A stretch of 64,000 bases of DNA from contig NZ_OZ241836.1 of assembly GCF_965202595.1 (NCBI RefSeq), positions 215,095 to 279,094 on the forward strand, written 5' to 3'. The notes beneath the pieces were generated by a model. That model did no database searches. It saw only the letters and a program-made list of their open reading frames with translations, and had not been told where the DNA came from. Position 1 is the first letter of the stretch, and the number at the start of each line of letters is the position of its first letter. The position numbers were made by a program, and so were the translations under genes. Origin of the DNA: Candidatus Poriferisocius sp. (GTDB lineage Bacteria; Actinomycetota; Acidimicrobiia; Acidimicrobiales; Bin134). This document shows, piece after piece, positions 13,291 through 64,000 of the stretch.

Positions 13291-14505
13291 ATGACCCGGC
13301 GGGTGGCGATCTTGTCCCTGCATACCTCCCCCCTGTCCCAACCCGGTGAGGGTGACAGCGGGGGCATGAACGTGTATGTCCGGGAGATGGCGGCGGCGCT
13401 GGCCCACTCCGGCAACGAGTGCCGGGTGTATGTGCGCCGCGGGCGCGGCGGCCAGGCCGATGAGGTGCCCATCGAGCCGGGGGTGACCGTGGTTCATGTG
13501 GACGCCGGGTCCCCCGATCTGGGCAAGGAGGAGCTTCACGAGGTGGTGGACCGGTTCGCCGATGGCGTGCTGGCCGATTTGCAGCGGCAGGGAGATCCCG
13601 ATGTGATCCATGCCAATTACTGGCTGTCCGGTGTGGCCGGTCACCGGATCAAGCACGCGCTGGAGGTACCTCTGGCCGTGACGTTCCACACGCTGGCCCG
13701 GGTGAAATCGGCTACCGGCGACGCTGAGTCCGAGCGCCGGGCCCGGGCCGAGACCGAGGTGATCGGTTGCGCCGATGTGGTTATAGCCTCCTGCGAGCCG
13801 GAGGCTCAGCAACTGCGGAGTTTCTACGACGCCCCGCCCGAGCGGATCGAACTGGCCGCCCCCGGAGTTGAGCATGCCCTGTTCTCGCCCGGTGATCGGG
13901 AGGGTGCTCGTAGAGCCCTCGGCCTGGGTAGCGGCCCGGTGCTGCTGTTCGTCGGCCGGATCCAGCCGCTGAAACGACCCCTTGTCGCGGTGGAGACCAT
14001 GGCCTGCCTGGCCCGTGAGGATGCTCGGCTGCTCATTGTGGGAGGCCCCAGCGGCCCGGAGGGCAACAACGAGTACCAGCGTCTGCGGGGCCGCATCCAG
14101 GCCCTGGGTTTGGAGGATCGGGTGACGTTGGTGCCCCCCTGCCCCCACCACTGGCTGTCCACTTACTACCGGGCCGCAGATGTAGTGCTGGTTCCCAGCC
14201 GGAGCGAGTCGTTCGGGTTGGTGGCTCTGGAGGCCGCGGCCTGCGGAACCCCGGTGGTGGCTGCCCCCGTCGGCGGCCTGCGCGCGGTGGTTGACGACGG
14301 TCGCACCGGTTTTCTCGTGGACGAGGCTGTGCCCGAAAACTTCGCCAACCGGGTGGCCGCGCTGGTGGACAACCCGCTGCTGGCGGCGGAGATGGCCATG
14401 AACGCGGCCGAGCGAGCCCGATCCTTCTCCTGGGCCGCCATGGCTCGGTCGTTGGGGGCCGTCTACCGAAGGGTCGAGTCCCGAGTACCCGTCTATTGCC
14501 AGTGA
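13291..14505 (+). CDS. mshA: D-inositol-3-phosphate glycosyltransferase (mycothiol biosynthesis), GT4
   Basis: The N-terminal VAILSLHTSPLSQPGEGDSGGMNVYV is the characteristic MshA signature. GT4 C-terminal motif: PSRSESFGLVALEAAACGTPVV. Confidence 0.8.
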   Translation: MTRRVAILSLHTSPLSQPGEGDSGGMNVYVREMAAALAHSGNECRVYVRRGRGGQADEVPIEPGVTVVHVDAGSPDLGKEELHEVVDRFADGVLADLQRQGDPDVIHANYWLSGVAGHRIKHALEVPLAVTFHTLARVKSATGDAESERRARAETEVIGCADVVIASCEPEAQQLRSFYDAPPERIELAAPGVEHALFSPGDREGARRALGLGSGPVLLFVGRIQPLKRPLVAVETMACLAREDARLLIVGGPSGPEGNNEYQRLRGRIQALGLEDRVTLVPPCPHHWLSTYYRAADVVLVPSRSESFGLVALEAAACGTPVVAAPVGGLRAVVDDGRTGFLVDEAVPENFANRVAALVDNPLLAAEMAMNAAERARSFSWAAMARSLGAVYRRVESRVPVYCQ

Positions 14506-14515
14506 TTTATTGCCA

Positions 14516-14648
14516 ATGACGCGGCCTGGTGGTGTTGATCTGTGGGGTTGTCGATGACGCGGCCTGGTGGTGTTGATGTGTGGGGTTGTCGATGACGCGG
14601 CCTGGTGGTGTTGATGTGTGGGGTTGTCGATGACGCGGCCTGGTGGTG
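14516..14648 (+). repeat. 38-bp tandem repeat (3 full units plus a partial one) encoding three ATGA-chained 13-codon mini-ORFs that lead into the next gene
   Basis: Mini-ORFs at 14516-14557, 14554-14595 and 14592-14633 (MTRPGGVD[L/V]WGCR*). Each stop overlaps the next ATG. The last ATG, at 14630, starts the downstream gene (MTRPGGDTGG...). Confidence 0.9.
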
Positions 14649-16501: not shown

Positions 16502-17389
16502 TTGATACCGCCTCGGGGCACTGGCGCAGCCTTGCGCTACGACACCGTCTCGTTCTTGTCCGATTACGGGCTGGGTGATGAATTCGTCGGGGTGGTGAAG
16601 TCGGTCATCCGGTCTCTGGCTCCCGAGGTGGTGGTGGTGGACATCACCCATGACATTGCTCCTCACGATGTCAGGGCCGGGGGCCTGGCCCTGGCTCGCA
16701 GCGCCCAGTACCTGGTACCCGGGGTGGTGCTGGCCGTGGTCGATCCCGGAGTGGGGGGCAAGCGGCGGGCCGTGGCGGTGGAAGTGGGAGGCGGAACCTC
16801 GGTGCTGGTCGGCCCCGACAACGGCCTGCTGGCCCCGGCGGTGGCCATGGTCGGGGGAGCGACCCGAGTGGTGGAGCTGACCGCCGAGAAATACCACCTT
16901 CGCTCTCCCGGCCCTACATTCGCGGGCCGCGACGTGTTCGCTCCGGTGGCCGCCCACCTGTGTTCGGGGGTCGGGCTCGAAGACGTGGGCACGCCGATCC
17001 CTATGCACTCCCTGACTCCGGGAGTCGTGCCGGTGAGCCGTACCGGCGGCGACCGGATCGATGCCGAGGTGCTTTGGATCGATCGATTCGGGAACTTGCA
17101 GCTCAACCTCGACCCCTCCGACATCGACCCTATGGGTGATGTGCTGAGGATCACCGCGGGCGGTGTGGGTCGCAACGCCCGCCGGGTCAACTGCTTCAGC
17201 GATGTGAGCACTGGTGATCTGGGGATACTGGTAGACTCCTACGGGTTGGCGGCCGTTGCGGTCAACCGAGGTTCGGCAGCGATGGAGTTGAACTGCAAGG
17301 AGGGTGACTCCATCATCGTCGAATCGGGGGAGTCCGCTTTGGCCACCCCGGTGCAACTTCAACCCAGACCCCCGGAGGTGCCGGCATGA
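16502..17389 (+). CDS. SAM hydroxide adenosyltransferase / SAM hydrolase family (DUF62)
   Basis: VSFLSDYGLGDEFVGVVKSVI, PGVVLAVVDPGVG, LVGPDNGLL and IDRFGNL match the fluorinase/chlorinase-like family. Confidence 0.75.
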   Translation: MIPPRGTGAALRYDTVSFLSDYGLGDEFVGVVKSVIRSLAPEVVVVDITHDIAPHDVRAGGLALARSAQYLVPGVVLAVVDPGVGGKRRAVAVEVGGGTSVLVGPDNGLLAPAVAMVGGATRVVELTAEKYHLRSPGPTFAGRDVFAPVAAHLCSGVGLEDVGTPIPMHSLTPGVVPVSRTGGDRIDAEVLWIDRFGNLQLNLDPSDIDPMGDVLRITAGGVGRNARRVNCFSDVSTGDLGILVDSYGLAAVAVNRGSAAMELNCKEGDSIIVESGESALATPVQLQPRPPEVPA

Positions 17390-17484
17390 GACCGGGAACC
17401 ACCATCGCTATCGCCGTGCCATGAGACCGGGAACCACCATCGTCATCGCCGTGCCATGAGACCGGGAACCACCATCGTCATCGC
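17386..17484 (+). repeat. 35-bp tandem repeat (2 units plus a partial one) encoding two ATGA-chained 12-codon mini-ORFs
   Basis: Mini-ORFs 17386-17424 (MRPGTTIAIAVP*) and 17421-17459 (MRPGTTIVIAVP*). The first ATG overlaps the upstream gene's stop (ATGA at 17386-17389). The last stop overlaps ATG 17456. Confidence 0.9.
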
Positions 17485-19459: not shown

Positions 19460-20434
19460 ATGCTGCGCGCCGCCACCCGAGGCAGCGCCTTGGCCCGCTG
19501 GCAAGCAGCCCACGTAGCCGATCTGCTGGGCGATGCCATCGACGTTCAACTGCTTGTTGTGACCACAACCGGCGACCGGCGAGCCGGCGAGCCCATATCG
19601 TCCATCGGCGGCAAGGGGGTGTTCGTCAAGGAGGTGCAGGCCGCGGTGCTGGACGGGCGGGCCGACCTGGCCGTCCACTCGGCCAAGGACCTGCCCGCCA
19701 CCACCCCCGATGGTCTGGTGGTGGCTGCGGTGCCCCCCCGGGCCGATCCTCGGGACGCGCTGGTGGGCAGCCGGTTGGACGACCTTCCCCCCAAAGGGTT
19801 GGTGGCCACCGGCTCGGCCCGCCGCCGGGTTCAGCTCCGCCGGCTCCGCCCCGATCTGCGGTTCGCCGAGTTGCGGGGCAACATTGACACCCGGCTGGCC
19901 AAGGTGCCCGACTACCACGCAGTGATCATGGCCAAAGCCGCCCTGGACCGGCTGGGCGAGCATCCGAGCGTTGTGGCGGCGCTGGGTCGGCGGGGCGAGC
20001 AACCGAGCGTTGTGGCCGCCCTGGAGCGGCTGGGCGAGCAACCGAACGTTGTGGATGTGTTGGGTCGGCGGCGCGAGCAGCCGGCCATCGTGGATGTGTT
20101 GGACTGCGAGGTTATGGTTCCTCAGGTGGGTCAAGGGGCCCTGGCGGTGGAGTGCCGGGAGGGCGATGATCGGGTCCGCTCCCTTCTGGCCGCCATCGAG
20201 GATCCAATGGCCCGGCGAGCGGTGGACGCCGAGCGGGCCTTTCTGTCCACCCTGGGCGGTGATTGCACCTTGCCCGCGGGAGCCCACGCCCGGATACTCG
20301 ACAACCGGGTGGTGATGCGGGCCGTGCTGGCCGGCGGTGTGGACGGCCGCTGCCACACCATGGTTGACGAGGGCAGCGACGGTGAATCCCTGGGCCAAGA
20401 CTTGGCCCGCCGGTTGCTTGCCGCGGCCCGATGA
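19460..20434 (+). CDS. hemC: Hydroxymethylbilane synthase (porphobilinogen deaminase) with a 39-bp x4 in-frame insertion
   Basis: LRAATRGSALARWQA, GKGVFVKE, RGNIDTRL and PQVGQGALAVECR motifs. ATG 19460 is preferred over the maximal ORF start at 19412. Confidence 0.9.
   Translation: MLRAATRGSALARWQAAHVADLLGDAIDVQLLVVTTTGDRRAGEPISSIGGKGVFVKEVQAAVLDGRADLAVHSAKDLPATTPDGLVVAAVPPRADPRDALVGSRLDDLPPKGLVATGSARRRVQLRRLRPDLRFAELRGNIDTRLAKVPDYHAVIMAKAALDRLGEHPSVVAALGRRGEQPSVVAALERLGEQPNVVDVLGRRREQPAIVDVLDCEVMVPQVGQGALAVECREGDDRVRSLLAAIEDPMARRAVDAERAFLSTLGGDCTLPAGAHARILDNRVVMRAVLAGGVDGRCHTMVDEGSDGESLGQDLARRLLAAAR
19955..20110 (+). repeat. In-frame 39-bp (13-aa) tandem repeat x4 inside hemC
   Basis: ggcgagca[t/a]ccgagcgttgtgg at 19955, 19994 and 20033, with a degenerate copy at 20072. 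Protein: GEHPSVVAALGRR GEQPSVVAALERL GEQPNVVDVLGRR REQPAIVDVLD. Confidence 0.9.
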
Positions 20435-20662
20435 CCGTTTATCCACGATGGCAGGGTTGATGGGCATGGCGTTGAACACTCGCCGGTTGCTTGCTGCGGC
20501 CCGATGACCGTTTATCCACGATGGCAGGGTTGATGGGCATGGCGTTGAACACTCGCCGGTTGCTTGCTGCGGCCCGATGACCGTTTATCCACGATGGCAG
20601 GGTTGATGGGCATGGCGTTGAACACCCGCCGGTTGCTTGCTGCGGCCCGATGACCGTTTACC
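20408..20662 (+). repeat. 73-bp tandem repeat (3 units plus a partial one) of the hemC-stop/cobA-start junction, encoding six chained mini-ORFs
   Basis: cgccggttgcttgc at 20408, 20481, 20554 and 20627. Mini-ORFs: 20431-20460, 20460-20507, 20504-20533, 20533-20580, 20577-20606, 20606-20653. They alternate between 9 aa (MTVYPRWQG) and 15 aa (MGMALNTRRLLAAAR), linked by ATGA and TGATG overlaps. Confidence 0.9.
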
Positions 20663-23587: not shown

Positions 23588-24789
23588 ATGTACTCGGCTG
23601 TTTTGGGGTTGTCGGGATCCATGAGGTTGGCCATGATGCGCAGGGCCCACTCCATGATCGGCCGGGATTGCATGCCGATCCGGGTTAGTTCCCGCAGCAG
23701 CGCCGGTTTGCCGATGAGCCGGGCAAACAGGCGGGCCACCCGAAAGTAATCCCCGTAGCATTCGTCCAGCAGGTTCGGGTACCGCCAGATCACCCCGCCG
23801 TCACCGGTGGCCAGGGCCTCGGCCACCAGATCGGCGGCCATCCGACCCGTCTCGTAGGCGTAGTCGATGCCCTCACCGTTGAACGGGTTGACCGACCCGG
23901 CCGCGTCCCCCACCACCAGGTGGTTGGGCCCCACCTTGGGGTTGACCGACCCGGCCATGGGCAGGCGCCCCCCCACCGGGTCCATCAGCGGCCGGTTGGG
24001 GTCGATCTCCCAGTGGGCGGGCAGGGTGGCCGCGAACTCCCGCATCAAGTGGGAGGTGTTGACCGAGGTGTAGTCACGAAACGTGGACAGCAGACCCACG
24101 CCCACGTTCACGCTCCCGTCGCCCACGGGGAAGATCCAGCCGTATCCCGGCAGTGAATTGCCGTTGCGGTCCCGCACATCCAGGGCGCTCTCGATCCAGG
24201 GGGTGTCGTGGAGCGGGCTCTCGAAGTATGTGCGGATGGCCATGCCCTGGGGGTAGGTCCGGTCCCGGGCCGTTCCCAGGGCCCGGCCGAACCGGGAGTT
24301 GGCCCCGTCGGCGACCACCACATAGCGGGCCCGTACCCGGTCGGTGCCGCCCGTTATGGTGTTCTTCACCTCGACCCCGTCCAGCAGCCCGTTGACCAGC
24401 AGCGGTCGGGTGGCTTCAACCCCGAGCCGGAGTTCGGCCCCCCCGGCTACCGCGTGGTCGGCCACCAGTTGGTCGAGCTCCCGCCTCCGCACCACATAGC
24501 CGTAGTCGGGGAATACCGGGTGGCGGGGCCAGGCCAATTCCATGGTCCGGCCATGGGCCACCGCCCGCAAACCCCGGTAACGGTGGTAGCGGATCATCCG
24601 GTGACCCAAACCCATGTCGTTCAGCGCCTTTACCGCCCGGGGGGTGAGTCCATCGCCGCACGTTTTGTCACGGGGGAACTGCTTGCGCTCCACCACCACC
24701 ACGTCCAGCCCGTGCCGGGCCGCCCAGTAGGCCGTGGCGGCTCCGGCCGGGCCACCGCCGACGACCAGAAGGTCGCGGGAAGTGGTCAG
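23545..24789 (-). CDS. Geranylgeranyl reductase family FAD-dependent oxidoreductase
   Basis: DLLVVGGGPAGAATAYWAARHG dinucleotide fold, RDKTCGDGLTPRA and GDAAGSVNPFNGEGI. No ATG or GTG lies near the fold. The start is inferred as CTG 24789, overlapping a TGA. The maximal ORF (to 24915) would overlap the upstream gene by about 100 nt. Confidence 0.75.
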   Translation of the reverse strand: MTTSRDLLVVGGGPAGAATAYWAARHGLDVVVVERKQFPRDKTCGDGLTPRAVKALNDMGLGHRMIRYHRYRGLRAVAHGRTMELAWPRHPVFPDYGYVVRRRELDQLVADHAVAGGAELRLGVEATRPLLVNGLLDGVEVKNTITGGTDRVRARYVVVADGANSRFGRALGTARDRTYPQGMAIRTYFESPLHDTPWIESALDVRDRNGNSLPGYGWIFPVGDGSVNVGVGLLSTFRDYTSVNTSHLMREFAATLPAHWEIDPNRPLMDPVGGRLPMAGSVNPKVGPNHLVVGDAAGSVNPFNGEGIDYAYETGRMAADLVAEALATGDGGVIWRYPNLLDECYGDYFRVARLFARLIGKPALLRELTRIGMQSRPIMEWALRIMANLMDPDNPKTAEYIYKAAAKASTVASK

Positions 24790-24829
24790 TTCTCCCCCAG
24801 AAGGTCGCGGGAAGTGGTCAGTTCTCCCC
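24765..24829 (-). repeat. 32-bp tandem duplication of the cytochrome-c-stop / reductase-start junction
   Basis: ccagaaggtcgcgggaagtggtcagttctccc at 24765 and 24797. On the minus strand this gives an 11-codon ORF (CTG 24821 to TGA 24786: LTTSRDLLGEN*) between the two genes. Confidence 0.8.
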
Positions 24830-37166: not shown

Positions 37167-39790
37167 ACCGGCCGGAAACCGTGGTCAACATCACCGTCAA
37201 CAACCGGTCGGTGCAAGCCACCCCCGGAGAGTGGGTGATTGCCGCTGCCGAACGGGCCGGGGTGTACATCCCCCACTTTTGCTACCACCCCCGCATGAAC
37301 TCGGTGGGCATGTGCCGCATGTGCATCGTGGACATCGACACCGGGCGCGGCCCCGCCCTGCAACCCTCCTGCATGGTGCCGGTCAGCGAGGGAATGGTGG
37401 TGGACACCACCTCCGAGCAGACCCGCAAGGCTCAGGAGGGGGTGCTGGAGTTCCTGCTGTTGAACCACCCGCTGGACTGCCCGGTGTGCGACAAGGGCGG
37501 CGAGTGCCCCCTCCAGGACCAAACCATGTCCCACGGCCCCGGCGAGAGCCGCTTGGTGGAGGAGAAGCGCCATTTCGAGAAGCCCATCCCGGTGAACGAT
37601 CTGGTTTATCTGGACCGGGAGCGCTGCATCCTCTGCGATCGCTGCACCCGGTTTGCCGATGAGGTGGCTGGGGACCCGCTCATCACGTTCCAGGATCGGG
37701 GGGATCGGACTCAGGTCAACACCTTCCCCAATCTGCCCTTCTCCTCGTACTTCAGCGGCAACACCGTGCAGATCTGCCCGGTGGGGGCCCTCACCGCTCG
37801 ACCCTACCGGTTCAAGGCCCGCCCCTGGGACCTCACCGAGGTGGAGTCCACCTTCCCCAACCCCATGGGTGATCGGGTGGTGGTGCAGGCCTCTCGCGAC
37901 CAGGTGCTGCGCTACCAGGGAGTGGACAGCGACGCGGTCAACTGGGGGTGGCTCACCGACAAGGATCGGTTCGCATTCGAAGCTCTTGATCGGGGGCCAC
38001 GGCTGACGGTGCCGCTGGTTCGGGGCTCCTCGATGAGTGGCTCCGACCCCGGCGGCCAGGAGCTGGTGGAGTCCTCCTGGCATCAAGCCCTCAACCGGGC
38101 CGCGGAGGCCATCCGGGCTGCGGTGGCCGACCGGGGTCCGGGGTCGGTGGCGATACTGGGTGGGGCCCGCTCGACCAACGAGGACCAGTACGCCTGGGCT
38201 CGCCTGGCCAAGGGGGTTATCGGCACCGACCATGTTGACGCTCAGCTCGACGACGGCCTGCCCGCCGATGTCGTGCTCGGCCTGCCTCGGGCCACCATCA
38301 ATCGGGCCTGCACCCCCGGCGGCACCGTGATCTTGATGGCACCCGATCCCAAGGAGGAACAAGGCACCCTCTACCTGCGGCTCCGCCACGCCGTGACCAA
38401 CGACGGCGTGCAGCTCATCGAGCTGACCCCCCGAGCCACCGGTTTGAGCCATCTCGCCGCCCACCGGCTGCACCACCGCCCCGGTGAGGTTGCCGCGGTG
38501 GCGGCGGCCCTGGTGGGCGGCGATATCGATGTCGGACCCGCCGGTGAGATCGGCGGGGTTCCCGGTCCGGTGCTGGCCGCTGCGGCGGCCGGGCTGGTGG
38601 CCCGAGCCGATCAACCCATAACCGTGATCCTGGGTCGCCCTTCGCTGGCCGAGTCGGCCGCCCCTACGGTGGAGGCCGCCGCCGAACTGTCCAAGCTGGC
38701 CCGGCTGCTCGCCGCGGGCGGGCGACCCGGCATGAGTTTCCTGCCCGTACTGCACCGGGGCAACGTGTTCGGCGCGCTCGACATGGGTCTGGCTCCCGGT
38801 CTGCTGCCGGGCCGGGTGTCCCGGGCCGATGGTGGCTCGGCGGTGGCCGAGTTTTGGGGTTCGTTACCGGCGGACCCGGGCGCTGGGGCCGGCATCGCCA
38901 CCGGCGCTGCCACCGGCGCTGGGGCTGGTGCTGTCACCGGCGCTGCCACCGGCGCTGCCACCGGCGCTGGGGCCGGCGGGATCCTGGAAGCGGCCGCAGG
39001 GGGACGAATCGAGGTGCTGATCCTTTTGGGGGCCGATCCTTTGGGCGACGTTCCCAACGCCAAGCTGGCCGAGACCGCTCTGGCCGGGGTGGGCACCATC
39101 ATTGCCTCCGACTTGTTCCTGAACCCCTCCGCGGCCCGGGCCGACATCGTTTTCCCGGTCACGGCGTTCGGTGAGCATCGGGGTACCCACACCAACCTGG
39201 AGGGTCGGATCACCCGGCAGCGCCAGATTGTCACCCCTCCGGGTACGGCCCGGACCAACTGGTCCATCGCCACCGATCTGGCTCGGTTGCTGGGCACCGA
39301 TTTCGGGTTTGCCGACCCCGAGGCGGTGTGGTCCGAGATCACCCGGGTGGCCCCGTCGCACCGGGACCTGACCCTGGAGGCCGTGGAAGCCGAAACCGAT
39401 GGCGTGGTGGTTGCCGGTAGCTCCATCGTGTTCACCCCGCCCGGCGAACCGGTGCCGGTACCCCCGGCCGATGCCTACGGCCTGCGGTTGGTGTCGTCGC
39501 GCCGCATGTACGACCGGGGCACGCTGCTTCAGCACTCCCCCTCCCTGGCCGGTTTGGCTCCCACGGCGGTGCTGGCCGTGAACCCCTCCGACTTTCAGGG
39601 TGTCGGGGTGGATCCCGGTACCGAGGTTCAGGTCGTCTCCCCGGTCGGTGAGATGACCGTGCCGCTGGTGGTCGACCCCGGTGTGCCCCGAGGGACCGCA
39701 GCTTTTGGCTACAACCACCCCGACCGCGATGTACGAGAACTCATCGACCCGGCCGCGGTGGTTACCGATGTGAGGATTCAGACCCGATGA
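37163..39790 (+). CDS. nuoG: NADH-quinone oxidoreductase subunit G
   Basis: N-terminal 2Fe-2S/4Fe-4S Cys clusters (CYHPRMNSVGMCRMC, HPLDCPVCDKGGECPLQD, CILCDRC) and a molybdopterin-like domain. A GA/T-rich low-complexity insertion lies around 38870-38990. Confidence 0.95.
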   Translation: MNRPETVVNITVNNRSVQATPGEWVIAAAERAGVYIPHFCYHPRMNSVGMCRMCIVDIDTGRGPALQPSCMVPVSEGMVVDTTSEQTRKAQEGVLEFLLLNHPLDCPVCDKGGECPLQDQTMSHGPGESRLVEEKRHFEKPIPVNDLVYLDRERCILCDRCTRFADEVAGDPLITFQDRGDRTQVNTFPNLPFSSYFSGNTVQICPVGALTARPYRFKARPWDLTEVESTFPNPMGDRVVVQASRDQVLRYQGVDSDAVNWGWLTDKDRFAFEALDRGPRLTVPLVRGSSMSGSDPGGQELVESSWHQALNRAAEAIRAAVADRGPGSVAILGGARSTNEDQYAWARLAKGVIGTDHVDAQLDDGLPADVVLGLPRATINRACTPGGTVILMAPDPKEEQGTLYLRLRHAVTNDGVQLIELTPRATGLSHLAAHRLHHRPGEVAAVAAALVGGDIDVGPAGEIGGVPGPVLAAAAAGLVARADQPITVILGRPSLAESAAPTVEAAAELSKLARLLAAGGRPGMSFLPVLHRGNVFGALDMGLAPGLLPGRVSRADGGSAVAEFWGSLPADPGAGAGIATGAATGAGAGAVTGAATGAATGAGAGGILEAAAGGRIEVLILLGADPLGDVPNAKLAETALAGVGTIIASDLFLNPSAARADIVFPVTAFGEHRGTHTNLEGRITRQRQIVTPPGTARTNWSIATDLARLLGTDFGFADPEAVWSEITRVAPSHRDLTLEAVEAETDGVVVAGSSIVFTPPGEPVPVPPADAYGLRLVSSRRMYDRGTLLQHSPSLAGLAPTAVLAVNPSDFQGVGVDPGTEVQVVSPVGEMTVPLVVDPGVPRGTAAFGYNHPDRDVRELIDPAAVVTDVRIQTR

Positions 39791-39840
39791 CGGCTGACCC
39801 GGCTGCGGTGGTTACCGATGTGAGGATCCGGACCCGATGA
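39746..39840 (+). repeat. 50-bp duplication of the nuoG/nuoH junction with a 17-codon bridging mini-ORF
   Basis: gacccggc.gcggtggttaccgatgtgaggat.c.gacccgatga at 39746 and 39796. Mini-ORF 39787-39840 (MTADPAAVVTDVRIRTR*). ATGA overlaps at both ends. Confidence 0.9.
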
Positions 39841-42461: not shown

Positions 42462-42743
42462 CTGGTGCTGGCTGGCGCGCTGTTCACCATCGGGGCGGTG
42501 GGCCTGCTGGTGCGGCGGAACCCGCTGATCATGTTCATGTGCGTGGAGCTGATGCTCAACGCGGTCAACCTCACCTTCATCACCTTCGGGCGGGAGCTGA
42601 ATGACATCGGGGGGCAGGTGTCGGTGTTCTTCGTGCTGGTGGTGGCCGCGGCCGAGGTGGTGGTGGGTCTGGCCATCGTGGTGGCCATCAAGCGCCACCA
42701 ACCCCGGGCCACCGCCGACGACCTTGCGGCCCTGAAGGGTTAG
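42441..42743 (+). CDS. nuoK: NADH-quinone oxidoreductase subunit K
   Basis: 100 aa: LVLAGALFTIGAVGLLVRRNPLIMFMCVELMLNAVNL. Confidence 0.95.
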   Translation: MVTASWYLVLAGALFTIGAVGLLVRRNPLIMFMCVELMLNAVNLTFITFGRELNDIGGQVSVFFVLVVAAAEVVVGLAIVVAIKRHQPRATADDLAALKG

Positions 42744-42843
42744 TGGGTACATGAGCATGCTCGTGGATGCTGAAGGGTTAGTGGGTACATGAGCACCCTC
42801 GTGGATGCTGAAGGGTTAGTGGGTACATGAGCACGCTCGTGGA
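42732..42843 (+). repeat. 38-bp tandem repeat x3 of the nuoK/nuoL junction with two chained 13-codon mini-ORFs
   Basis: ctgaagggttagtgggtacatgagca..ctcgtggat at 42732, 42770 and 42808. Mini-ORFs 42751-42792 (MSMLVDAEGLVGT*) and 42789-42830 (MSTLVDAEGLVGT*), ATGA-chained to the nuoL ATG at 42827. Confidence 0.9.
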
Positions 42844-53556: not shown

Positions 53557-54396
53557 TTATTCTCCCAAGTAGGTGTTTCGTATAGAGTCTAAAGCTAGTC
53601 GGATATAGTGTGCACTGTCCCTGTATGCTTTCAATACCCATTCATAACCGTTGTCTGATTGGCACACAAAGTTCCAAAAGTCTTGACCTATCAATAGTTC
53701 TTCGTCTGCAAAAAATTGTCGTACTCTTTCTTGTGCCCACGGTTGGCCTTCTCCAAATCTGTTATAGGCAGTAGCGAAGAAAGTACGGACTGTGGCATCC
53801 TCGGAAAGCTGATTGGTCAGTATCGTATATTGTTCCATAATAGCTTCTTTTTCAGAGCGTGCCTTCTTGTTGTCCAGGTCACCGCCTATCTTTAGTTCTA
53901 TCAGGTAGTGTTTGTTAGCTGCTCTGTCAATCAGATAATAGTCAGACCCGTGCTGTTTTATGATAGGTGAACCTTTTACTGATTTGTGCAGCTTTCTGTA
54001 GTCAGATAGAGATGGTGTTGCCCGTCGGCTTTTATAACTTTCTAATATCGCAGCGATGGTCGATATTTGATCTTCACTTATAAAGCCAGATATATTATTG
54101 TGAACCTCAAACGAGAGTTCTGCAATTTGGATTGCTAGTTTTTCTAACATGTTGCCTAGCGAACTGTCTAGTGATCGAACTAAAGCAGTATAGTATCGTA
54201 TTTCCGGCCCTAAAGCTTCAATAAAAATATTGTGTATTTTCATGTTTATCACGCCATTAGGGTTGTTTACTTCACTTTCGTGGCGCAGCTTAAACCCTTC
54301 CGCGTATGCCATCACACAGCCGCGTACAAGCGTTTCAACTGCCAGTTGCTTGGGTGTGTTGTCGTGCGTCATGCGGCCCCTGTTTCCAATTTTCAT
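53557..54396 (-). CDS. Probable Type II restriction endonuclease, partner of the adjacent methyltransferase
   Basis: 279-aa AT-rich ORF ending 1 nt before the methyltransferase start. It has a candidate PD-(D/E)xK-like core (DYYLIDRAANKHYLIELKIGGDLDNKK). It resembles the TdeIII-type family from memory only; this is unverified. Confidence 0.5.
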   Translation of the reverse strand: MKIGNRGRMTHDNTPKQLAVETLVRGCVMAYAEGFKLRHESEVNNPNGVINMKIHNIFIEALGPEIRYYTALVRSLDSSLGNMLEKLAIQIAELSFEVHNNISGFISEDQISTIAAILESYKSRRATPSLSDYRKLHKSVKGSPIIKQHGSDYYLIDRAANKHYLIELKIGGDLDNKKARSEKEAIMEQYTILTNQLSEDATVRTFFATAYNRFGEGQPWAQERVRQFFADEELLIGQDFWNFVCQSDNGYEWVLKAYRDSAHYIRLALDSIRNTYLGE

Positions 54397-57255: not shown

Positions 57256-58600
57256 TCCTATAGTTGTTCTCTGAGCACTCGAAGAAGGCGGTCATGCTCT
57301 GTATCCAAAAGTTCCTTTTGTGCTTCAAATTCTTCCAGTGCCTCAAAAAACTCTTTAACCATCTCTCTCTGGTTATCAATGGGTATAACTGGAATGGGAA
57401 TACATTCAATATGTTTTTTGTAAATGTGAGGCTGCCCTGTCCCTTGTTGTCTACTGTAAATTTCATTTTGGCGGCTTTTTACGCAAGCATAAAGGTATCC
57501 AGTTAGAAATTTAAATTCATCCCTACTATATACTACAATACTATCTGATGCCCATATAGGCCCACTGTGCCACCAAACATAGCATGAGTAGGCACCGCTC
57601 TTGCTTATAGTAAAGCAATTTCCGCGGTGTGTAAAATTTTTGTGGTTGTACGGACTGGACCCACCGCCAGCAATAACAGGTATATTTCCTGGGAGTATCT
57701 CCTGCTTTGTGATTGATTTCCCATTCTCTAAATAAGCAACATTTTTTAGTAATACATAGTCGACACTTTCAGGAACAGGCCATAGTGAATTGGTTAGTGC
57801 AGCAAACACGTTTTTCATGTTACGGGTTTTGACGACAGAGACTGAGCGATTCATATCCTCAGGAATCGGGTCAGGTTCATCCTGGTATGATAACTGCCAT
57901 ACTTCCTCCTTCTGACAAAGAGTTGAAACACCGTAGCAAACAGGCTTCATCAGCGTCCTTCGCATCACTGTCAACCAGGCGAATCTCACCCCTGCTGAGA
58001 CTTTGGGAAAATGGAATGTTGGAGAAGACAACTTGGAATTTGTTCTCTGGAGGGTTGTTTATGCTGTTAATTTGAGTCACACCTGAGTGGCCATCTCCGA
58101 ACAGAATCATATTCATTTTCGCTATTCGTGCGTTGCTAGTTATTTCTTGCCCAAATATGGTTTTGGTTTGAAGAATCTCTATATCCCGAGGTGACCTCCC
58201 AGCTTTGAAGCTAAGGTGTTTGTATGATTCTACTAGAAATCCACCTGTGCCACAGAAGAGATCGAATACTGTCTGCCTAAACTCTGGATCAACAAGTTTT
58301 ACCATAAATCGGACAATATGTCTGGGTGTGAAGTATTCACCAAGGTCATTCTGAATGGTTGTACGCTGAATAAAATGCTCAAATGCAACTCCTTTTATGT
58401 CTTCATCAACACTTGACAAACTTAAAGGGTTCAATTCTAATATAATTTTCTTTAGTACTTTTCCATCCTTAATTTTGGTTTCAGAAATAACCTCACTAGC
58501 ACCGTATCGACATCTGCGACAGTTACCCCTGAACCACAAAACACCAGGTCAGAAGGGGTGTCTTTAGCGCCGTACATAAGTCGTGTTCTGGTCAGATCAA
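57256..58600. other. AT-rich islet 3 (about 1.3 kb) between two convergent host genes
   Basis: A sharp compositional switch follows the stop at 57255. The right edge is fuzzier, around 58550-58660. Confidence 0.7.
57258..58539 (-). pseudogene. Decayed Type I/IIG-like methyltransferase-specificity (M-S) gene: frameshifted and truncated
   Basis: ORF 57877..58539 has the YFTPRHIVRFMV, DLFCGTGGFL and SNIPFS N6-MTase motifs, but lacks the N-terminal domain and ends early. The overlapping ORF 57258..58031, in another frame, encodes one HsdS-type TRD plus a conserved helix. A further frame break lies near 58540-58590. Confidence 0.7.
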
Positions 58601-58664
58601 GTCAACACCCGATGAGCAAGCGAGTTTGGCGACCCCGGCGCTCCCTTGAACACGGGGGGAAGGG

Positions 58665-59744
58665 TTAGCCGATGGTGATTAGTTCGGGTAGGGATTGGTG
58701 GTTGGAAAAGATGGTGGCGGCGGGGGAGCCTCCGGCTAGGGCGTCGGCGGCCAGGATGACGGCGGCGGCGGTGTAGGTGGAGCGCTCGGCGGCGGGGAAG
58801 TGGGTTCGCTCGGGGTGGACCATGCCGGTGAAGTAGGAGCCGTCGTCGGCCCGCAGATCCTGCACCCATTCGAACATCTCGGTAGCGATGTCCCGCCGGC
58901 CCACGCCCAGGTGGGCGATGATGCACTCGCAGGTTTCCGCTGCGGTGACCCACGGTCGGTCCGAAACGCAGCGCACCCCGTGGCCGTCCATCACGAACTG
59001 GTCGAAGCGGGAGGCCAGCATGCTCCGACCGGCCTGCCCGGTGACCACCCCGGACAGAACCGGGTAGTACCAGTCCATGGCCCAGCGGTGCTTGGGCGCA
59101 AAAGCACCGGGCTGGGTACGGATCACATCGGCCAACCGGGCGGCACTCAACTCCCAGTCGGGGCGCTCGTGGCCCAGCTCCTCACCAATGGCGATGGCCG
59201 CCCTCAGGCTGTGACAGATACTGGACGATCCGGTCAGAAGGGCGAACGACCACGGCGTGCCGTCGGCGTGGCGGGCCCAGCGGATCTCCCCCCGGGGCAG
59301 TTGCAGATCGAGCACGAAATCCACCGCCGGTTCCACCACCGTCCACATCGTCTCCAAGAAGCCCCGATCGCCGGTACACAGGTAGTGGTGCCACACCCCG
59401 GTGGCCACGTAGCCCACGCAGTTGGCATCCAGCTTGTCCTGTTCCACGCCGTCGGCCAGGTAGTACTGGTGCCAGGCTCCGTCGGACCGCTGGTTGTCCA
59501 CCAGCCACTGGTAGGCCCGCTCGGCCTCGGCCCGAAACCCCATAACCATGAGAGCCATGGCCGCCTCCACGTGGTTCCACGGATCGGCATGACCGCCGGG
59601 GAACCAGGGGATCATCCCGCTGGGCAGTTGCCAGGCGGCAATGCTGCTCGCGGTCAACTCCAGTTCGGCTGAAGACAGAACCCCGGCCACCTGAGGGACA
59701 AAAAGCCCTGCCTCTTTATGGTTATGGGGTTCAGGCGGCGACAC
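58665..59744 (-). CDS. Alpha/alpha-barrel protein (prenyltransferase / terpene-cyclase-like repeat family)
   Basis: 359 aa with recurrent aromatic-rich DGxW/GGW-like repeats (QRSDGAWHQYY, RADDGSYFTG). The family assignment is tentative. Confidence 0.4.
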   Translation of the reverse strand: MSPPEPHNHKEAGLFVPQVAGVLSSAELELTASSIAAWQLPSGMIPWFPGGHADPWNHVEAAMALMVMGFRAEAERAYQWLVDNQRSDGAWHQYYLADGVEQDKLDANCVGYVATGVWHHYLCTGDRGFLETMWTVVEPAVDFVLDLQLPRGEIRWARHADGTPWSFALLTGSSSICHSLRAAIAIGEELGHERPDWELSAARLADVIRTQPGAFAPKHRWAMDWYYPVLSGVVTGQAGRSMLASRFDQFVMDGHGVRCVSDRPWVTAAETCECIIAHLGVGRRDIATEMFEWVQDLRADDGSYFTGMVHPERTHFPAAERSTYTAAAVILAADALAGGSPAATIFSNHQSLPELITIG

Positions 59745-60483
59745 TCTTGGCCTCCTTCAAATGGCTGGAACCTGATTTCCGGCTGTAAAGCACCAGGCTC
59801 TTGCCCAGGACCGGACTCAGAACCCGGTCAGCAATTCGGGTAATTCTGGGTTGGTCAACAATATCCCATTCCAGGAGTCGGCGGTAAGCCGCAACCAGCC
59901 GGTGGTTATCGTTGTTCGGACCCACCGCGCACCGCAACCACCAGTAGGGGCTGTGCAGCCCATGAGCGTGGTGGCTGGAGAACGGGGTGAGGCCGGCGCA
60001 CCGGAGCCGACCGCGGAGCTGTCCGTGCCGGTAGATGCGCACGTGGCCGCCCACCGCTCGGGGGGCGTGGTACTCGTCCGACAGGGCCCAGCAGATCTTC
60101 TCGGGTAGCCAGGTGGGTACGGTCACGGCCAGGACCCCGCCGGGTCGCAGCACCCGGGCCAGCTCGGTCAGGGCCTGCTCGTCGGAGTGCACGTGCTCGA
60201 GCACCTCCGAGGCGATGATCCGGTCGAATACCCGGTCGGCAAAAGGTAGGCGGGTGGCATCGCCCCGGACGGTTTGGCAGGTTCCGCGGTACCGCTCGCC
60301 GGCCTCCGACATGGCGGCAAAGGTGGCCCTCACCTGGGCCAGCTCTGTCGATGCCAGATCGCAGGCCACCACGTGCGCCCCCAATCGAGCAGCCTCATAG
60401 GCGTGGCGCCCGAAACCGCACCCCAGATCCAGGAGCTGCTCGCCGGGTTTCAACCCCAGCCGGTTGTAGTCAACGGTCAGCAC
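59731..60483 (-). CDS. Class I SAM-dependent methyltransferase
   Basis: LLDLGCGFGRHA (motif I), VVACDL and RVLRPGGVLAV. GTG start at 60483. Confidence 0.8.
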   Translation of the reverse strand: MLTVDYNRLGLKPGEQLLDLGCGFGRHAYEAARLGAHVVACDLASTELAQVRATFAAMSEAGERYRGTCQTVRGDATRLPFADRVFDRIIASEVLEHVHSDEQALTELARVLRPGGVLAVTVPTWLPEKICWALSDEYHAPRAVGGHVRIYRHGQLRGRLRCAGLTPFSSHHAHGLHSPYWWLRCAVGPNNDNHRLVAAYRRLLEWDIVDQPRITRIADRVLSPVLGKSLVLYSRKSGSSHLKEAKSVAA

Positions 60484-60647
60484 CTGCTGTCCAGCAGTAC
60501 CCGGTAGTGCTCCGCTGGGGAGGAGGGCCGTATTCTCACCGTCACGCGTGCCATTCGTTGAGCAGTACCCGGTAGTGCTCCGCTGGGGATGCGGTTTGGG
60601 TTCTCACCGTCACGCGTGCCATTCGTTGAGCAGTACCCGGTAGTGCT
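60477..60647 (-). repeat. 68-bp tandem repeat (2 units plus a partial one) of the GT4-stop / methyltransferase-start junction, with two chained mini-ORFs
   Basis: The tca (stop) recurs at 60610 and 60542. Minus-strand mini-ORFs: 60613-60542 (VTVRTQTASPAEHYRVLLNEWHA*) and 60545-60477 (VTVRIRPSSPAEHYRVLLDSRC*). They are GTGA-chained, and the last overlaps the methyltransferase GTG by 7 nt. Confidence 0.85.
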
Positions 60648-61869
60648 CAACGGTCTTTTCCGCAGTGTGGTGCCAACTCCAGCGGCTCCTCACCCGTTCC
60701 CGCCCGGCTTGGCCTATCCGAGCGGCCATGGCCGGATTGTCCAGAATCCGAACGAGCGCCCCGGCCAATGCCTCGCTGTCTGCGGGGGGCACCAGCAGGC
60801 AGGTCTCGCCGCTGGTGCCGGCCACCTCGGGCAGCGCCCCGCCGGTGGTGGCCACCAGCGGTGTGGCGCTGGACATGGTTTCGATGGCCGGCAGCGAGAA
60901 CCCCTCGTACAGCGAGGGCACCACTGCCACTGAGCTGGTGGCGTACAGCTCCACAATGCGGTCATCGGGCACCCCCGACACGAACTCCACCACCTCGCCC
61001 AGTCCCAGGCTGTTGATGGTGGAGGAGGATGCACCCCCCTCGCGGGGTTTTCCGATCACGATCAGCCGCACATCCCGCTCGGTGCGCAACTTGGCCACCG
61101 CCTCCAGCAGGTAGCGCAGGCCCTTCATGGGCACATCCGCGCTGGCGGTGGTGATGATCTGCCCCGGCCGGCGGTCCACGCCGGGAAGCGGGCGGAACAG
61201 CTCGGTATCCACCCCCACCGGTACCACATGCATCCGGCCATGGGGTACCCGCTGGTCCCGGGCTATGTCGTCGAGGGACGACTCCGACACGGTGATGATG
61301 CGCCGCAAGCGGCGGGCCACCCGGGCCTGCATCCGGATGAAGGAGTACCAGCGTCGCTTGCCGAAACGATCCATCATCCCCCGGGCGTGCTCGAGCTCCA
61401 GTTGGCGGTCCACGGTGATGGGATGGTGGATGGTGGCCAGTACCGGTAGCCCGTCCCGCTCCATGCCCAAAAGCCCGTAGCCCAATGACTGGTTGTCGTG
61501 CACGATATCGAATTCCCCGGCTCGGGAGCGCAGTGCCTGCCAGGCCCGGAGCGAGAAGGCCAGCGGTTCGGAGAAGGCTCCGGTCATGAACGAGCCCACC
61601 TCGGCGGCATCGGCCCACGATTTGATCTCCCAGAATCCGGGTAACCGGCCCGGGTAGGCATCGTTGAAGATATCCAGGCTGGGAAGCCGGTGAAGCGGTA
61701 CCCGAGGGTCCAGAACCGGGTAGGGCTGCCCGCTCAGCACCTCCACGTGGTGCCCCAGATCGGTCAGCGCCCGACTCAGGTGATGGACGTACACGCCCTG
61801 GCCCCCGCAATGGGGTTTGCCCCGGTACGAAAGCAGGGCAATCCTGAGGGATCGATCCTCCGGGGCCAT
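60610..61869 (-). CDS. GT4-family glycosyltransferase
   Basis: IALLSYRGKPHCGGQGVYVHHLSRAL, and PSLYEGFSLPAIETMSSATPLV (EX7E region). Confidence 0.85.
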   Translation of the reverse strand: MAPEDRSLRIALLSYRGKPHCGGQGVYVHHLSRALTDLGHHVEVLSGQPYPVLDPRVPLHRLPSLDIFNDAYPGRLPGFWEIKSWADAAEVGSFMTGAFSEPLAFSLRAWQALRSRAGEFDIVHDNQSLGYGLLGMERDGLPVLATIHHPITVDRQLELEHARGMMDRFGKRRWYSFIRMQARVARRLRRIITVSESSLDDIARDQRVPHGRMHVVPVGVDTELFRPLPGVDRRPGQIITTASADVPMKGLRYLLEAVAKLRTERDVRLIVIGKPREGGASSSTINSLGLGEVVEFVSGVPDDRIVELYATSSVAVVPSLYEGFSLPAIETMSSATPLVATTGGALPEVAGTSGETCLLVPPADSEALAGALVRILDNPAMAARIGQAGRERVRSRWSWHHTAEKTVEHYRVLLNEWHA

Positions 61870-61875
61870 GACCTA

Positions 61876-61981
61876 CAAGGTTCTCGGAATCAGGTTGGTT
61901 GGGTCAAATATCAGTTGTTGAGGGGTTTGGTGGAGCAGGTGGGCAAGGTTCTCGGAATCAGGTTGGTTGGGTCAAATATCA
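61876..61981 (-). repeat. 68-bp duplication of the lnt 3' end/stop region upstream of the GT4 gene
   Basis: caaggttctcggaatcaggttggttgggtcaaatatcag at 61876 and 61944. Confidence 0.85.
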
Positions 61982-63456
61982 GGCTTTGGGGGTTTGGGGG
62001 TTATGGTTCGCGAGCGGAAAGCCCAGGCGGCAACCCCGATTGCCAGGGCCAGGGCAACCATGGGCCAGGGGCCGGCTCGGGTGGCGAGGGTTTGGCCGGT
62101 CCGCAGCTCGACGGGAGCTTGGATCACTGCTTGTTCGGAAACGCCGGTGCGCTGGTAAACGTTTCCGCCGGGGTCCACGAACGCGCTGAAACCGGTTGGA
62201 GATGCCTGCGCCACCCACCGCCCCGTCTCCAGGGCCCGCAACCGGGAGCTGGCAACCTGCTGGGTCTGCACGATGGTGAGCCAGTAGCTGGACCCGTTGG
62301 TGGGGTTCAACAGCACCTCACCACCGTTGCCGATGGCATCCCGAGCCCGATCCTCGAAGAAGACCTCCCAGCTTATTGATACCCCCAGGCGACCCGCGGG
62401 GGTGTCCAGCACCGCGGGGGCGTTCCCCCGCCGCATGTCCTGGGCCGGTAGGTAGTCGGGGGCCAGCGGCTCGATGAGCCACCGCAGCGGCACGTACTCC
62501 CCGAACGGCACCAGCCGCACCTTGTCGTAGCGGCCCGCCGGGGTTCCCTCAGGGGTGAACACCGCAACGAAGTTGGCTCCTGCGCCGCCGGGCAGGTCTT
62601 CGATCACCCCGGCCACCAGGGTGGTGTTCAGTTCCTGGGCCAGCTCGGCCAACCGTTGCTGCTGGGGGCTGGCGGCGAACAGGCCCTGCACGTCCACCAC
62701 GTCCTCGGGCCACACCACCAGATCCACCGGTGGTTGCACCAGTTGGCTGGCTTCCCAGTGCCGTTCGAACACCACGGCCGGGTCGGTGTTCGCGGCTCGG
62801 GTCCGCTGGGGTCCTCCCCCCTGCACCAGGGCCACGTCGATGGTGCCGAGCGCCGAACCCTGGGGGGCTACCGCGGCCCAGCCCCAGAATCCCACCACCA
62901 CCACCGCCAGAACCAGTGCGGTCTGCCAATGGCGGTGCAAAGCTGCGGCCACAACCATGGCCACCGCTACCGCCACCCCCACCAGTAGCAACGGGCCCAG
63001 CACCCGAACGGTGATGGCCCATGGGCTGTCCACCTGGCTCATGGGCAGGGTGGACAGTGGCACCCCGCCGAAGGGCCACCGCCACCGTATCGCTCCGGCC
63101 AGCACGAACAGGCCGGGCAGGGCAACCCACCGGCCGATCCCCGGTGGGCAAGCCACCCCCACCGAGCCGTAAAGAATCGAGAACACCACGCCAACGGCCA
63201 GGTAACCGGGAAGGGTGAAATCGACCATCCACAATGTGGAGGGAAACAACCAGCCGGCCCCGAATCCCAACCCCCGCCAGGCCCGGGCCCATAAGGGTTG
63301 ATCGGCCAGCAGGCGCTCCAGAACCACCAGCGCCACCAGCGCGAGGGGCCACCATCCCCAGGGTGGCATCGACAGGGCAACCAGTCCCCCAGCCCCCAAG
63401 GAGCCCACCGCCGGCACCCCGCTGGTGCGAGCCCAAAGCCCGGGTGCGAAGTTCAC
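61972..63456 (-). CDS. lnt: Apolipoprotein N-acyltransferase
   Basis: N-terminal polytopic membrane domain plus a C-terminal CN-hydrolase domain (VVWPED..., FGEYVP, ISWEVFF). GTG start at 63456. Confidence 0.8.
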   Translation of the reverse strand: MNFAPGLWARTSGVPAVGSLGAGGLVALSMPPWGWWPLALVALVVLERLLADQPLWARAWRGLGFGAGWLFPSTLWMVDFTLPGYLAVGVVFSILYGSVGVACPPGIGRWVALPGLFVLAGAIRWRWPFGGVPLSTLPMSQVDSPWAITVRVLGPLLLVGVAVAVAMVVAAALHRHWQTALVLAVVVVGFWGWAAVAPQGSALGTIDVALVQGGGPQRTRAANTDPAVVFERHWEASQLVQPPVDLVVWPEDVVDVQGLFAASPQQQRLAELAQELNTTLVAGVIEDLPGGAGANFVAVFTPEGTPAGRYDKVRLVPFGEYVPLRWLIEPLAPDYLPAQDMRRGNAPAVLDTPAGRLGVSISWEVFFEDRARDAIGNGGEVLLNPTNGSSYWLTIVQTQQVASSRLRALETGRWVAQASPTGFSAFVDPGGNVYQRTGVSEQAVIQAPVELRTGQTLATRAGPWPMVALALAIGVAAWAFRSRTITPKPPKPDI

Positions 63457-63524
63457 TGGTATCTCATTGCCACGGGCATCTCATCGCCACTGGCATCTCA
63501 TCGCCGCGGGTATCTCATCGCCAA
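63453..63524 (-). repeat. 17-bp tandem repeat x4 encoding four ATGA-chained 4-6-codon mini-ORFs, ending on the lnt GTG
   Basis: tcat at 63464, 63481, 63498 and 63515; tcac at 63453. Minus-strand ORFs, verified base by base: MRYPRR* (63518-63498), MRCQWR* (63501-63481), MRCPWQ* (63484-63464), MRYQ* (63467-63453). Confidence 0.9.
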
Positions 63525-63543
63525 AGGATGCACCAGGTGCCGG

Positions 63544-64000
63544 CTACCGGGGGCCCGGGGCACCATTTGTGGCGGCAAGGGCTGCCTGGCGACCCTGATG
63601 GATGCAGGCCGGGATGCCCAATCCTCGGGCCCACGCCCCGGTGACCTGTACCCAGGGCGCGTCTTTGGACAACGCTTGTTCGATGGTGGTCACCAACTCC
63701 AGGTGGCCGGGGAAATACTGCGGCAGGGAGTGCTCCCAGCGGCTGATGCGCACATGCTGGGGCGTGGCGTTCAGCCCCATCGTCGTTTCCAAGTCCGACA
63801 TCACCACCCCCAGCAGGGCCTCGTCGCTCAGGTACAGCAGCTCGTTGTCGCCGTACCGGCCCAGGGACACTCTCATTATCACGGTGTTCGGCGATGCCAG
63901 GTGGGCCCACTTGCTTGAGGCCCATGAGCAGGCGGTGATGCTGAGGCCCTCCACGGCCGGTACCAGAAAACCCGATCCGGCCAGGGGGTGTTTCACGGCG
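63544..64000 (-). CDS. hemY: Protoporphyrinogen/coproporphyrinogen III oxidase, C-terminal part (5' end outside the window)
   Basis: GFLVP, SSKWAH, RWEHSLPQYFPGH and GLGIPACI match the HemY/CgoX C-terminal pattern. Confidence 0.75.
   Translation of the reverse strand, partial: AVKHPLAGSGFLVPAVEGLSITACSWASSKWAHLASPNTVIMRVSLGRYGDNELLYLSDEALLGVVMSDLETTMGLNATPQHVRISRWEHSLPQYFPGHLELVTTIEQALSKDAPWVQVTGAWARGLGIPACIHQGRQAALAATNGAPGPR

Follow-up and report, generated by a model that had tools for sequence, protein, structure and literature searches.

Tandem repeats at a glycosyltransferase-methyltransferase junction of a Poriferisocius sponge symbiont: a candidate translational relay built from local sequence

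Genes and repeats at the junction

The stretch of DNA analysed here (64 kb, hereafter "the window") belongs to the 3.04-Mb chromosome of 'Candidatus Poriferisocius sp.', a member of a sponge-symbiont clade of the Acidimicrobiales. Our subject is a tandem array of 68-bp units that lies between a gene for a GT4 glycosyltransferase and a co-oriented gene for a class I S-adenosylmethionine (SAM)-dependent methyltransferase (Table 1). The sequence covered also includes about 49 kb of a sister species (OZ220474.1). GT4 orthologues were gathered from 80 loci, and the presence of the repeat was compared in 78 related Acidimicrobiales loci.

The GT4 protein ends in EHYRVLLNEWHA, and its stop codon is the TGA at 60612-60610. 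The repeat unit includes the final 39 nt of the gene, stop codon included. A repeat search returned two 68-nt copies with 90% identity and three exact 20-nt copies at 68-nt spacing. Along the coding strand the layout of the array is (a b)(a b) a, followed by GGACAGCAG and GTG, where a is a 20-nt piece of GT4 coding sequence and b is 48 nt long. Segment a sits inside a quasi-palindrome found at the left edge of the unit.

Two small open reading frames (ORFs) link the two genes. The initial annotation had described 68-bp minus-strand units with GTGA overlaps at this place, and both the period reported by Tandem Repeats Finder and the translations agree with that description. It had also proposed a 23-aa ORF, from GTG 60613 to TGA 60542, with an end like that of GT4, and a 22-aa ORF, from GTG 60545 to TGA 60477, that overlaps the methyltransferase GTG (60483) by 7 nt; the coordinates and translations bear out both. 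The likeness of the small ORFs to the GT4 C-terminus is automatic, because the unit length is 2 mod 3. The stop codon of small ORF 2 (60479-60477) lies within the motif GTGCTGA at the methyltransferase start, the overlap covering 60483-60477. A chain algorithm gave stop-to-start spacings of d = -1, -1 and -4 along the series GT4, small ORF 1, small ORF 2 and methyltransferase.

The methyltransferase start at 60483 is supported by the relatives, whose start codon at the corresponding position is ATG or, in a few of them, GTG. At its other end the gene overlaps the next one (58665-59744) by 14 nt. No promoter-like or terminator-like sites were found in 59600-62100, where GT4/methyltransferase synteny is conserved, and Rfam families had no match in the window apart from one tRNA.

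Origin of the repeat unit

The 68-bp array is a recent, lineage-specific tandem duplication of the local junction. Its unit consists of the last 39 nt of GT4 and a 29-nt native spacer, and it aligns with the ancestral gene tail and spacer of the relatives; the spacer sequence has no second occurrence elsewhere in the window. The order of GT4 and methyltransferase is kept in all related loci, but the 68-nt repeat is absent from all 78 that were compared, indicating that the duplication is recent and restricted to this lineage.

In a typical Poriferisocius genome GT4 ends in EHYRALLDEWRPNR, and the junction runs from a TAG stop over a spacer of 31-48 nt to an ATG start and ATGCTGACC. In the window, GT4 has gained a stop within a GTGA, two codons before the point where the ancestral gene ended, and a second in-frame TGA persists at that point. 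At this junction three further species carry duplications that differ from this one and from each other (L003, gap 114 nt; L030, gap 122 nt; L025, gap 74 nt). We infer that replication slippage or template switching at the 29-nt quasi-palindrome on the unit boundary probably gave rise to the unit.

The array is most unlikely to be an artefact of assembly over a genome that is in truth single-copy. A 6007-bp contig from another ENA assembly (ERZ26051151, possibly not an independent assembly) is identical over the 6 kb of window positions 63952..57946 and has an equal copy number at 60493-60648, though its coverage, going by its name, is only 4x. The full units differ from each other at 7 positions, unlike the product of a collapse or expansion error, and differing junction repeats occur in independently assembled relatives, short-read assemblies among them. 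An exact 27-mer from the methyltransferase start had no match in the JGI metagenome collection.

The palindromic character of the unit raises the question of whether the repeat acts as a structural element of RNA or DNA, comparable to repetitive extragenic palindromes or bacterial interspersed mosaic elements. A quasi-palindrome of 21-29 nt, repeated three times, would then form hairpins or pair over longer distances and so alter mRNA stability, processing or ribosome access between the two genes, and the ORFs would be irrelevant. The predicted RNA fold of 60470-60660 (-73.7 kcal/mol, z = -2.75), in which the palindrome copies pair together, and the DNA hairpin (-8.3 kcal/mol, z = -4.4), with two inverted repeats found, are in keeping with such a role. 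We nevertheless consider it improbable. The palindromic stretch is normal protein-coding sequence (EHYR[AV]LL), conserved and found once in every relative, and the fold signal results from repeating a palindrome. There is no Rfam match and no terminator-like site, the units of the other relay arrays in the window are unrelated in sequence, and a structural element would leave unexplained the dependence on period modulo 3 that is described below.

A frame rule for repeats at gene junctions

When a repeat unit carries one stop/start junction, a chain of ORFs closes only if the period equals d modulo 3, where d is the distance from the start to the first base of the stop. The common junction types (d = -4, -1, +2 and +5) are all 2 mod 3. 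We tallied repeats with a period of at least 14 at same-strand gene junctions in the window, in the sister loci L163, L164 and L003, and in L165. The period was 2 mod 3 in 18 of the 20 co-directional junction repeats (binomial P = 2.3e-7), and in 7 of 8 when the window was taken alone (P = 0.0026). Repeats away from junctions showed this residue in 4 of 10 cases, a proportion that is not significantly off uniform and that differs from the junction repeats (Fisher P = 0.007). Repeats within genes, for their part, all have periods divisible by 3. The 73-nt repeat between hemC and cobA/hemD is an exception (1 mod 3); each of its units holds a pair of small ORFs, as such a length demands. Relays with units of 17, 11 and 41 nt at the junction of the amine oxidase gene and Lnt, which stand outside the 20-repeat tally, are consistent with the rule.

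The consequences of other unit lengths differ. A duplication of 0 mod 3 would lengthen the downstream protein at its N-terminus, and one such case was seen at 55141. A duplication of 1 mod 3 would carry ribosomes out of frame over the true start. Deletions of 1 or 2 nt disrupt most chains. Since reading frame is seen only by ribosomes, the frame rule implies that they read the duplicated start and stop codons and that duplications breaking the frame are weeded out.

Codon-phase microhomology was weighed as a neutral cause of the excess of 2 mod 3 periods but is contradicted by the nuoK-nuoL repeat, for which it predicts 1 mod 3 and a relay the observed 2 mod 3, although this is one case and not a quantitative test. 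A shuffle null with fixed junction ends and gap length proved uninformative as a test (P 0.6-0.86 for bridged gaps), the signal residing in the residue of the unit length and in the sequence at the ends and not in the interior, and the period modulo 3 was used instead.

A proposed translational relay

With a unit of 68 nt (2 mod 3) and the GT4 stop in GTGA, each copy of the unit sets a GTG one base ahead of the preceding TGA. In the mechanism we propose, a ribosome ending GT4 would reinitiate at GTG 60613, read 23 codons and halt at TGA 60542. It would reinitiate at GTG 60545 and read 22 codons as far as TGA 60477, which lies four bases into the methyltransferase ORF. A last reinitiation at GTG 60483 would start the methyltransferase. 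Both small peptides would be by-products. The benefit would be an operon mRNA that has no untranslated stretch and sends no out-of-frame ribosome into the methyltransferase gene.

We assign a probability of roughly 0.63 to the proposal that 60493-60648 is a translated relay of this kind, kept by selection, in which termination-reinitiation coupling runs via by-product ORFs. Support for the relay function is indirect, in that the unit lengths of junction repeats follow the frame rule that a relay needs. From this pattern we infer that the small ORFs are translated and that selection keeps only frame-compatible duplications.

A function for the peptides themselves is scarcely credible. The two small ORFs are intact, with start and stop codons, as functional micro-proteins would require, but no relative has them. 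Each consists half of a duplicate of the GT4 C-terminal tail and otherwise of translated sequence that used to be spacer, and the two differ in an 11-nt patch.

Several observations weigh against the relay at this locus. No recognisable Shine-Dalgarno sequence was read upstream of the small-ORF starts at GTG 60613 and GTG 60545. Where the gap between GT4 and methyltransferase is at least 20 nt, it is unbridged in 29 of 31 relatives and bridged in 2. Because the ancestral junction was an unbridged spacer of 31-48 nt, the relay must be new, with no overlap coupling to preserve. Four independent expansions are known at this junction, and only those of the window and L030 form a chain; the 72-nt duplication of L003 and the 43-nt unit of L025 do not. 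The L025 unit, which is 1 mod 3, is also the one clear counter-example to the frame rule, although it lies outside the tally and at a junction that was never overlap-coupled. Conversely, three repeats of L163 (periods 68, 44 and 35) are 2 mod 3 and lie off co-directional junctions. The form of the array, (a b)2 a + 9 nt with differences confined to the 11-nt patch, is not that of a clean one-step duplication; at least one further event, for example a 39-nt deletion within the third copy, would be needed. Finally, the shuffle values indicate that an open interior is likely once ends and frame fit, so the small ORFs carry little information.

These points bear on the alternative that the array is a neutral slippage product. 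The chain would then be incidental, and the methyltransferase would be translated independently, as in the relatives, which function with the unbridged spacer. Tandem repeats are dense in the window: 27 with a period of at least 10, or 4.2 per 10 kb, compared with about 1 per 10 kb in related loci, the sister species being about as rich as the window. Two of the four expansions remained unbridged, and open frames are expected once the ends fit. A chain formed by chance needs a start-forming base before the TGA, the right unit-length residue, the right final-link frame and open frames, and 22 random codons stay open with a probability of about 0.55. We put the likelihood that a repeat containing the stop yields such a chain at a few percent, a rough, uncomputed figure that is too high to neglect.

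The case beyond chance for the 60493-60648 chain accordingly comes from the window-wide and clade-wide pattern. The 18 of 20 junction repeats that obey the frame rule (P as above) point to reading-frame filtering of junction duplications, and hence to starts and stops that are read by ribosomes. At the GT4-methyltransferase junction itself, bridging in two of four expansions is well over the baseline of 2 in 31, and the window has gained its new GTGA stop. On balance we regard the neutral alternative as unlikely, while giving it more weight than any other rival of the relay.

If the relay is true, translational coupling has been put through a natural mutagenesis experiment in this genome, in which dozens of independent junction duplications have been filtered for stop/start register. 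It would also provide sequence-level evidence that ribosomes use duplicated junction starts and that a broken hand-off is costly. The interest of the 60493-60648 array lies mainly in the genome-wide pattern that it exemplifies. We can further speculate, with little confidence, that gene junctions are a preferred target of duplications that make units of 3k+2 nt, and that the number of relay units is a heritable, reversible rheostat. Each extra termination-reinitiation step would attenuate the downstream cistron and so tune operon stoichiometry (of Nuo subunits, haem enzymes and envelope enzymes), leaving promoters and coding sequence untouched.

Comparison with known systems

Mycobacterial interspersed repetitive units (MIRUs) reportedly go back to the work of Supply et al. 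in 1997. The array at 60493-60648 resembles them in placing 2.3 copies of a 68-bp unit between co-oriented genes, with small ORFs that overlap neighbouring stops and starts (GTGA, GTGA and GTGCTGA). In MIRUs, units 40-100 bp long are repeated in tandem between the genes of an operon, each with a small ORF that overlaps the neighbouring stop and start codons at -4 nt; this arrangement is thought to spare downstream expression (PMC12548453, PMC3184786). The classical units are 53 or 77 bp long in 9 of 12 loci (PMC3558156, Table 2). Both lengths are 2 mod 3, so classical MIRUs share the length arithmetic of the window arrays.

The differences are equally clear. MIRUs are a dispersed homologous family of about 40-50 loci, whereas here the unit of each locus is made from its own flanks and spacer. 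MIRUs bear marks of transposition, namely 4-nt direct repeats and both empty and filled sites, whereas the present unit is the local GT4 3' end plus native spacer. The host is an Acidimicrobiia sponge symbiont and not a Mycobacterium, and the density is far higher, with at least 8 arrays in 64 kb. An all-against-all comparison of the unit sequences of 17 arrays found no similarity except between orthologous pairs, and no spacer or filler sequence recurs in the window away from its own locus; for the 64 kb of this genome and the roughly 49 kb of the sister that were covered, this rules out a dispersed MIRU-like family. As regards variable number tandem repeat (VNTR) behaviour of the MIRU type, the only second contig of the strain is identical, and sister species have different copy numbers and periods at one orthologous junction. 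The 60493-60648 array thus has the working principle of a MIRU without a dispersed element family, and it is not a member of the MIRUs. Were the relay true, it would mean that MIRU-like architecture can recur from local sequence, without a mobile element family and beyond the mycobacteria.

Termination-reinitiation coupling shows enriched spacings of -4 and -1 nt and weakens with distance (PMC12548453). Every link of the 60493-60648 chain fits the canonical architecture described there (NTGA at -4, TGATG at -1). Whereas classical coupling passes directly from one real gene to another, the chains here interpose two to six non-functional small ORFs and would need successive reinitiations. The chain also recalls the short ORFs that deliver ribosomes to a downstream annotated start and whose peptide is irrelevant (PMC12548453). 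Those are usually single ORFs in a 5' leader, unlike the intercistronic, tandem and newly duplicated ORFs of the window. Slippage VNTRs and minisatellites offer a third parallel, in their head-to-tail local copies of 90-100% identity and in the copy number and period that vary between sister species at one junction. Ordinary intergenic VNTRs are free of frame constraint, whereas the arrays described here obey one. Our search of the literature on VNTRs together with translational coupling, and on Acidimicrobiia, sponges and tandem repeats, found nothing.

Other arrays in the window

The initial annotation held that the phenomenon is independent of strand and also uses GTG starts. Both statements extend to the whole window: chains run on the minus strand at 63454-63523 and 60493-60648 and on the plus strand from 14502, 17386, 20431, 39787 and 42743, and ATG, GTG and TTG are all found as chain starts. 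Spacings are d = -1 at almost every step and d = +2 in some, with d = -4 at the last link of the 60493-60648 locus. The 17-nt array between the amine oxidase gene and Lnt lies in the same operon as GT4, and its last link is a GTGA into the Lnt GTG at 63456.

Table 1. Repeat arrays, small ORFs and flanking genes in the window
Feature	Position	Strand	Details
GT4 glycosyltransferase gene	61869..60610	minus	419 aa; Pfam Glycos_transf_1 6e-29, Glyco_transf_4 5e-26
Quasi-palindrome, 29 nt	60624..60652	minus	CGTTGAGCACTACCGGGTACTGCTCAACG; left unit edge; inverted repeat; DNA hairpin -8.3 kcal/mol, z = -4.4
Tandem array, 68-bp unit x 2.3	60493..60648		Tandem Repeats Finder: period 68, 92% matches, score 263
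Unit 1	60581..60648	minus	20-nt segment a (EHYRVLL coding), GT4 tail, TGA/GTG, 29-nt spacer
Unit 2	60513..60580	minus	7 mismatches to unit 1, all in unit positions 49-59 (11-nt patch)
Partial unit 3	60493..60512	minus	segment a alone; then 9 nt GGACAGCAG (60492-60484), then methyltransferase GTG
Small ORF 1	60542..60613	minus	23 aa, VTVRTQTASPAEHYRVLLNEWHA; GTG overlaps GT4 TGA as GTGA (60613-60610); TGA 60544-60542
Small ORF 2	60477..60545	minus	22 aa, VTVRIRPSSPAEHYRVLLDSRC; GTG overlaps small ORF 1 TGA as GTGA (60545-60542)
Class I SAM-dependent methyltransferase gene	59731..60483	minus	250 aa; GTG start 60483; Pfam Methyltransf_11 1e-23
Amine oxidase gene to Lnt, 17-nt unit x about 3.7	63454..63523	minus	ATGA-linked 6-codon ORFs MRYPRR, MRCQWR and MRCPWQ and 4-codon MRYQ, each with stop
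Lnt to GT4, two 55-nt copies at 68-nt spacing	61876..61998	minus	same operon; no tight chain in window
Second GT4 gene to YbjN-family gene, 14-nt mini-duplication and 38-nt unit x 3.5	14502..14633	plus	four small ORFs, all NTGA-linked
After SAM_HAT gene, 35-nt unit x 2.9	17386..17459	plus	two 12-aa ORFs, ATGA-linked; SAM_HAT to 29-aa ORF
hemC to cobA/hemD, 73-nt unit x 3.5	20431..20653	plus	six small ORFs in all, a pair in each unit; d = -1 at every link
Cytochrome c gene to FAD-dependent oxidoreductase gene, 32-nt unit x 2.0	24765..24829	minus	CTGA in unit, no canonical start; chain status uncertain
nuoG to nuoH, 50-nt unit x 1.9	39787..39840	plus	one 17-aa ORF, ATGA at both ends
nuoK to nuoL, 38-nt unit x 3.0	42743..42830	plus	VGT and stop, then two 13-aa ORFs

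The sister species lacks expansions at four of these junctions, having a plain ATGA overlap between GT4 and the YbjN-family gene (window 14502..14633) and between hemC and cobA/hemD, a 4-nt overlap between nuoG and nuoH, and a 7-nt spacer between nuoK and nuoL. The window arrays at these places are therefore new. At the orthologous SAM_HAT junction both species have an array: the window repeats a 35-nt unit 2.9 times and the sister a 38-nt unit 3.9 times, so that the units differ by 3 nt.

Several arrays (14516-14648, 20408-20660 and 39746-39840) follow an (a b)n a pattern, in which a comes from the native flank and b is a filler unique within the window. Arrays of this form are not simple one-step duplications. 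Between nuoG and nuoH, the duplicated stretch is 45 nt long and a 5-nt filler brings the period to 50 nt.

Many operon junctions in which no repeat is detectable are bridged as well. In the window, single small ORFs with overlapping ends span such gaps at nuoH-nuoI, nuoI-nuoJ and nuoL-nuoM, and in relatives such ORFs are found at nuoA-nuoB, nuoF-nuoG and nuoH-nuoI. A metagenome scan with NuoK reached only distant actinobacteria, at identities of 80% or less, in which the nuoK-nuoL spacing has a median of -4. On one of these contigs (L135, Ga0214469_1000269; NuoK 69% identical), a 45-aa ORF at 10113-10306 bridges nuoK and nuoL with ATGA overlaps at both ends, indicating that bridging small ORFs are not confined to Poriferisocius.

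Arrays in the sister species and other relatives

The sister species has arrays of its own at other loci, with periods of 47, 38, 65, 53, 68, 62 and 59, and a further species has a 62-nt array. L010 has an ATGA overlap at the amine oxidase-Lnt junction, where three species carry independent ATGA relays with the unit lengths given above. An exact 68-nt period recurs at five or six loci with unrelated unit sequences (window 60493 and 61876, L003 2820, L163 1320 and 16048, L164 7295), which may point to a preferred duplication length.

One of these loci lies just upstream of GT4. The conserved segment there is doubled at a 68-nt period, with about 1.8 copies in the window and 2.6 copies in L003 (2820-2994), where the copies are 100% identical and carry TTGA-linked ORFs; the window repeat at 61876..61998 is homologous to this 68-nt x 2.6 repeat of the sister species. 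Most relatives have an antisense gene between Lnt and GT4 (gap 513 nt), presumably dtd, for D-tyrosyl-tRNA deacylase. It is absent from the window (gap 102 nt, 61870-61975), a 126-nt remnant is present in L028, and the sister locus L003 keeps most of the stretch (gap 673).

In L163, an IS3-type transposase pair (HTH_Tnp_1 and rve, 16258-17420) adjoins a 34/68-nt array (16048-16198). According to the chain algorithm, the transposase stop is linked to the cytochrome c gene via four NTGA-linked ORFs.

Further observations

Arrays of this type affect annotation. Gene callers read them as intergenic gaps of 50-220 nt or choose wrong starts; the SAM_HAT start in L163 is an example, and the cobA start there seems doubtful too. 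The arrays are good candidate strain-typing markers for uncultivated sponge symbionts.

A 29-aa hydrophobic ORF, MRPGTTIVIAVLLLAILVAAAVQLFVLAR, is common to the window (17456-17545, plus strand) and the sister (L163, about 7937-8030). The 35/38-nt relay precedes it and a sirC-like gene follows, and it may be a genuine small membrane protein. Within hemC (19412-20434) there is an in-frame 39/78-nt tandem repeat at 19937-20083. It brings the HemC protein to 324 aa, against 286 aa in most relatives and 303 aa in the sister, indicating that tandem duplications expand proteins too in this lineage.

Eukaryote-like repeat proteins, such as those of the fibronectin type III (fn3) kind, are often reported from sponge symbionts. 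On the plus strand at 3467-7660, the window has a 1397-aa ORF with at least 8 fn3 domains (Pfam fn3, 2e-80) and a strong G>C skew of 0.2-0.37; a second fn3 ORF follows at 7685-8776 (plus strand).

Three islands of low GC content (48000-50000, 52000-54000 and 56000-58600) have values of 0.44-0.56, compared with about 0.66 elsewhere. They hold domains of type I restriction-modification systems (N6_Mtase at 57877-58539 and Methylase_S at 57258-58031) and were probably acquired horizontally.

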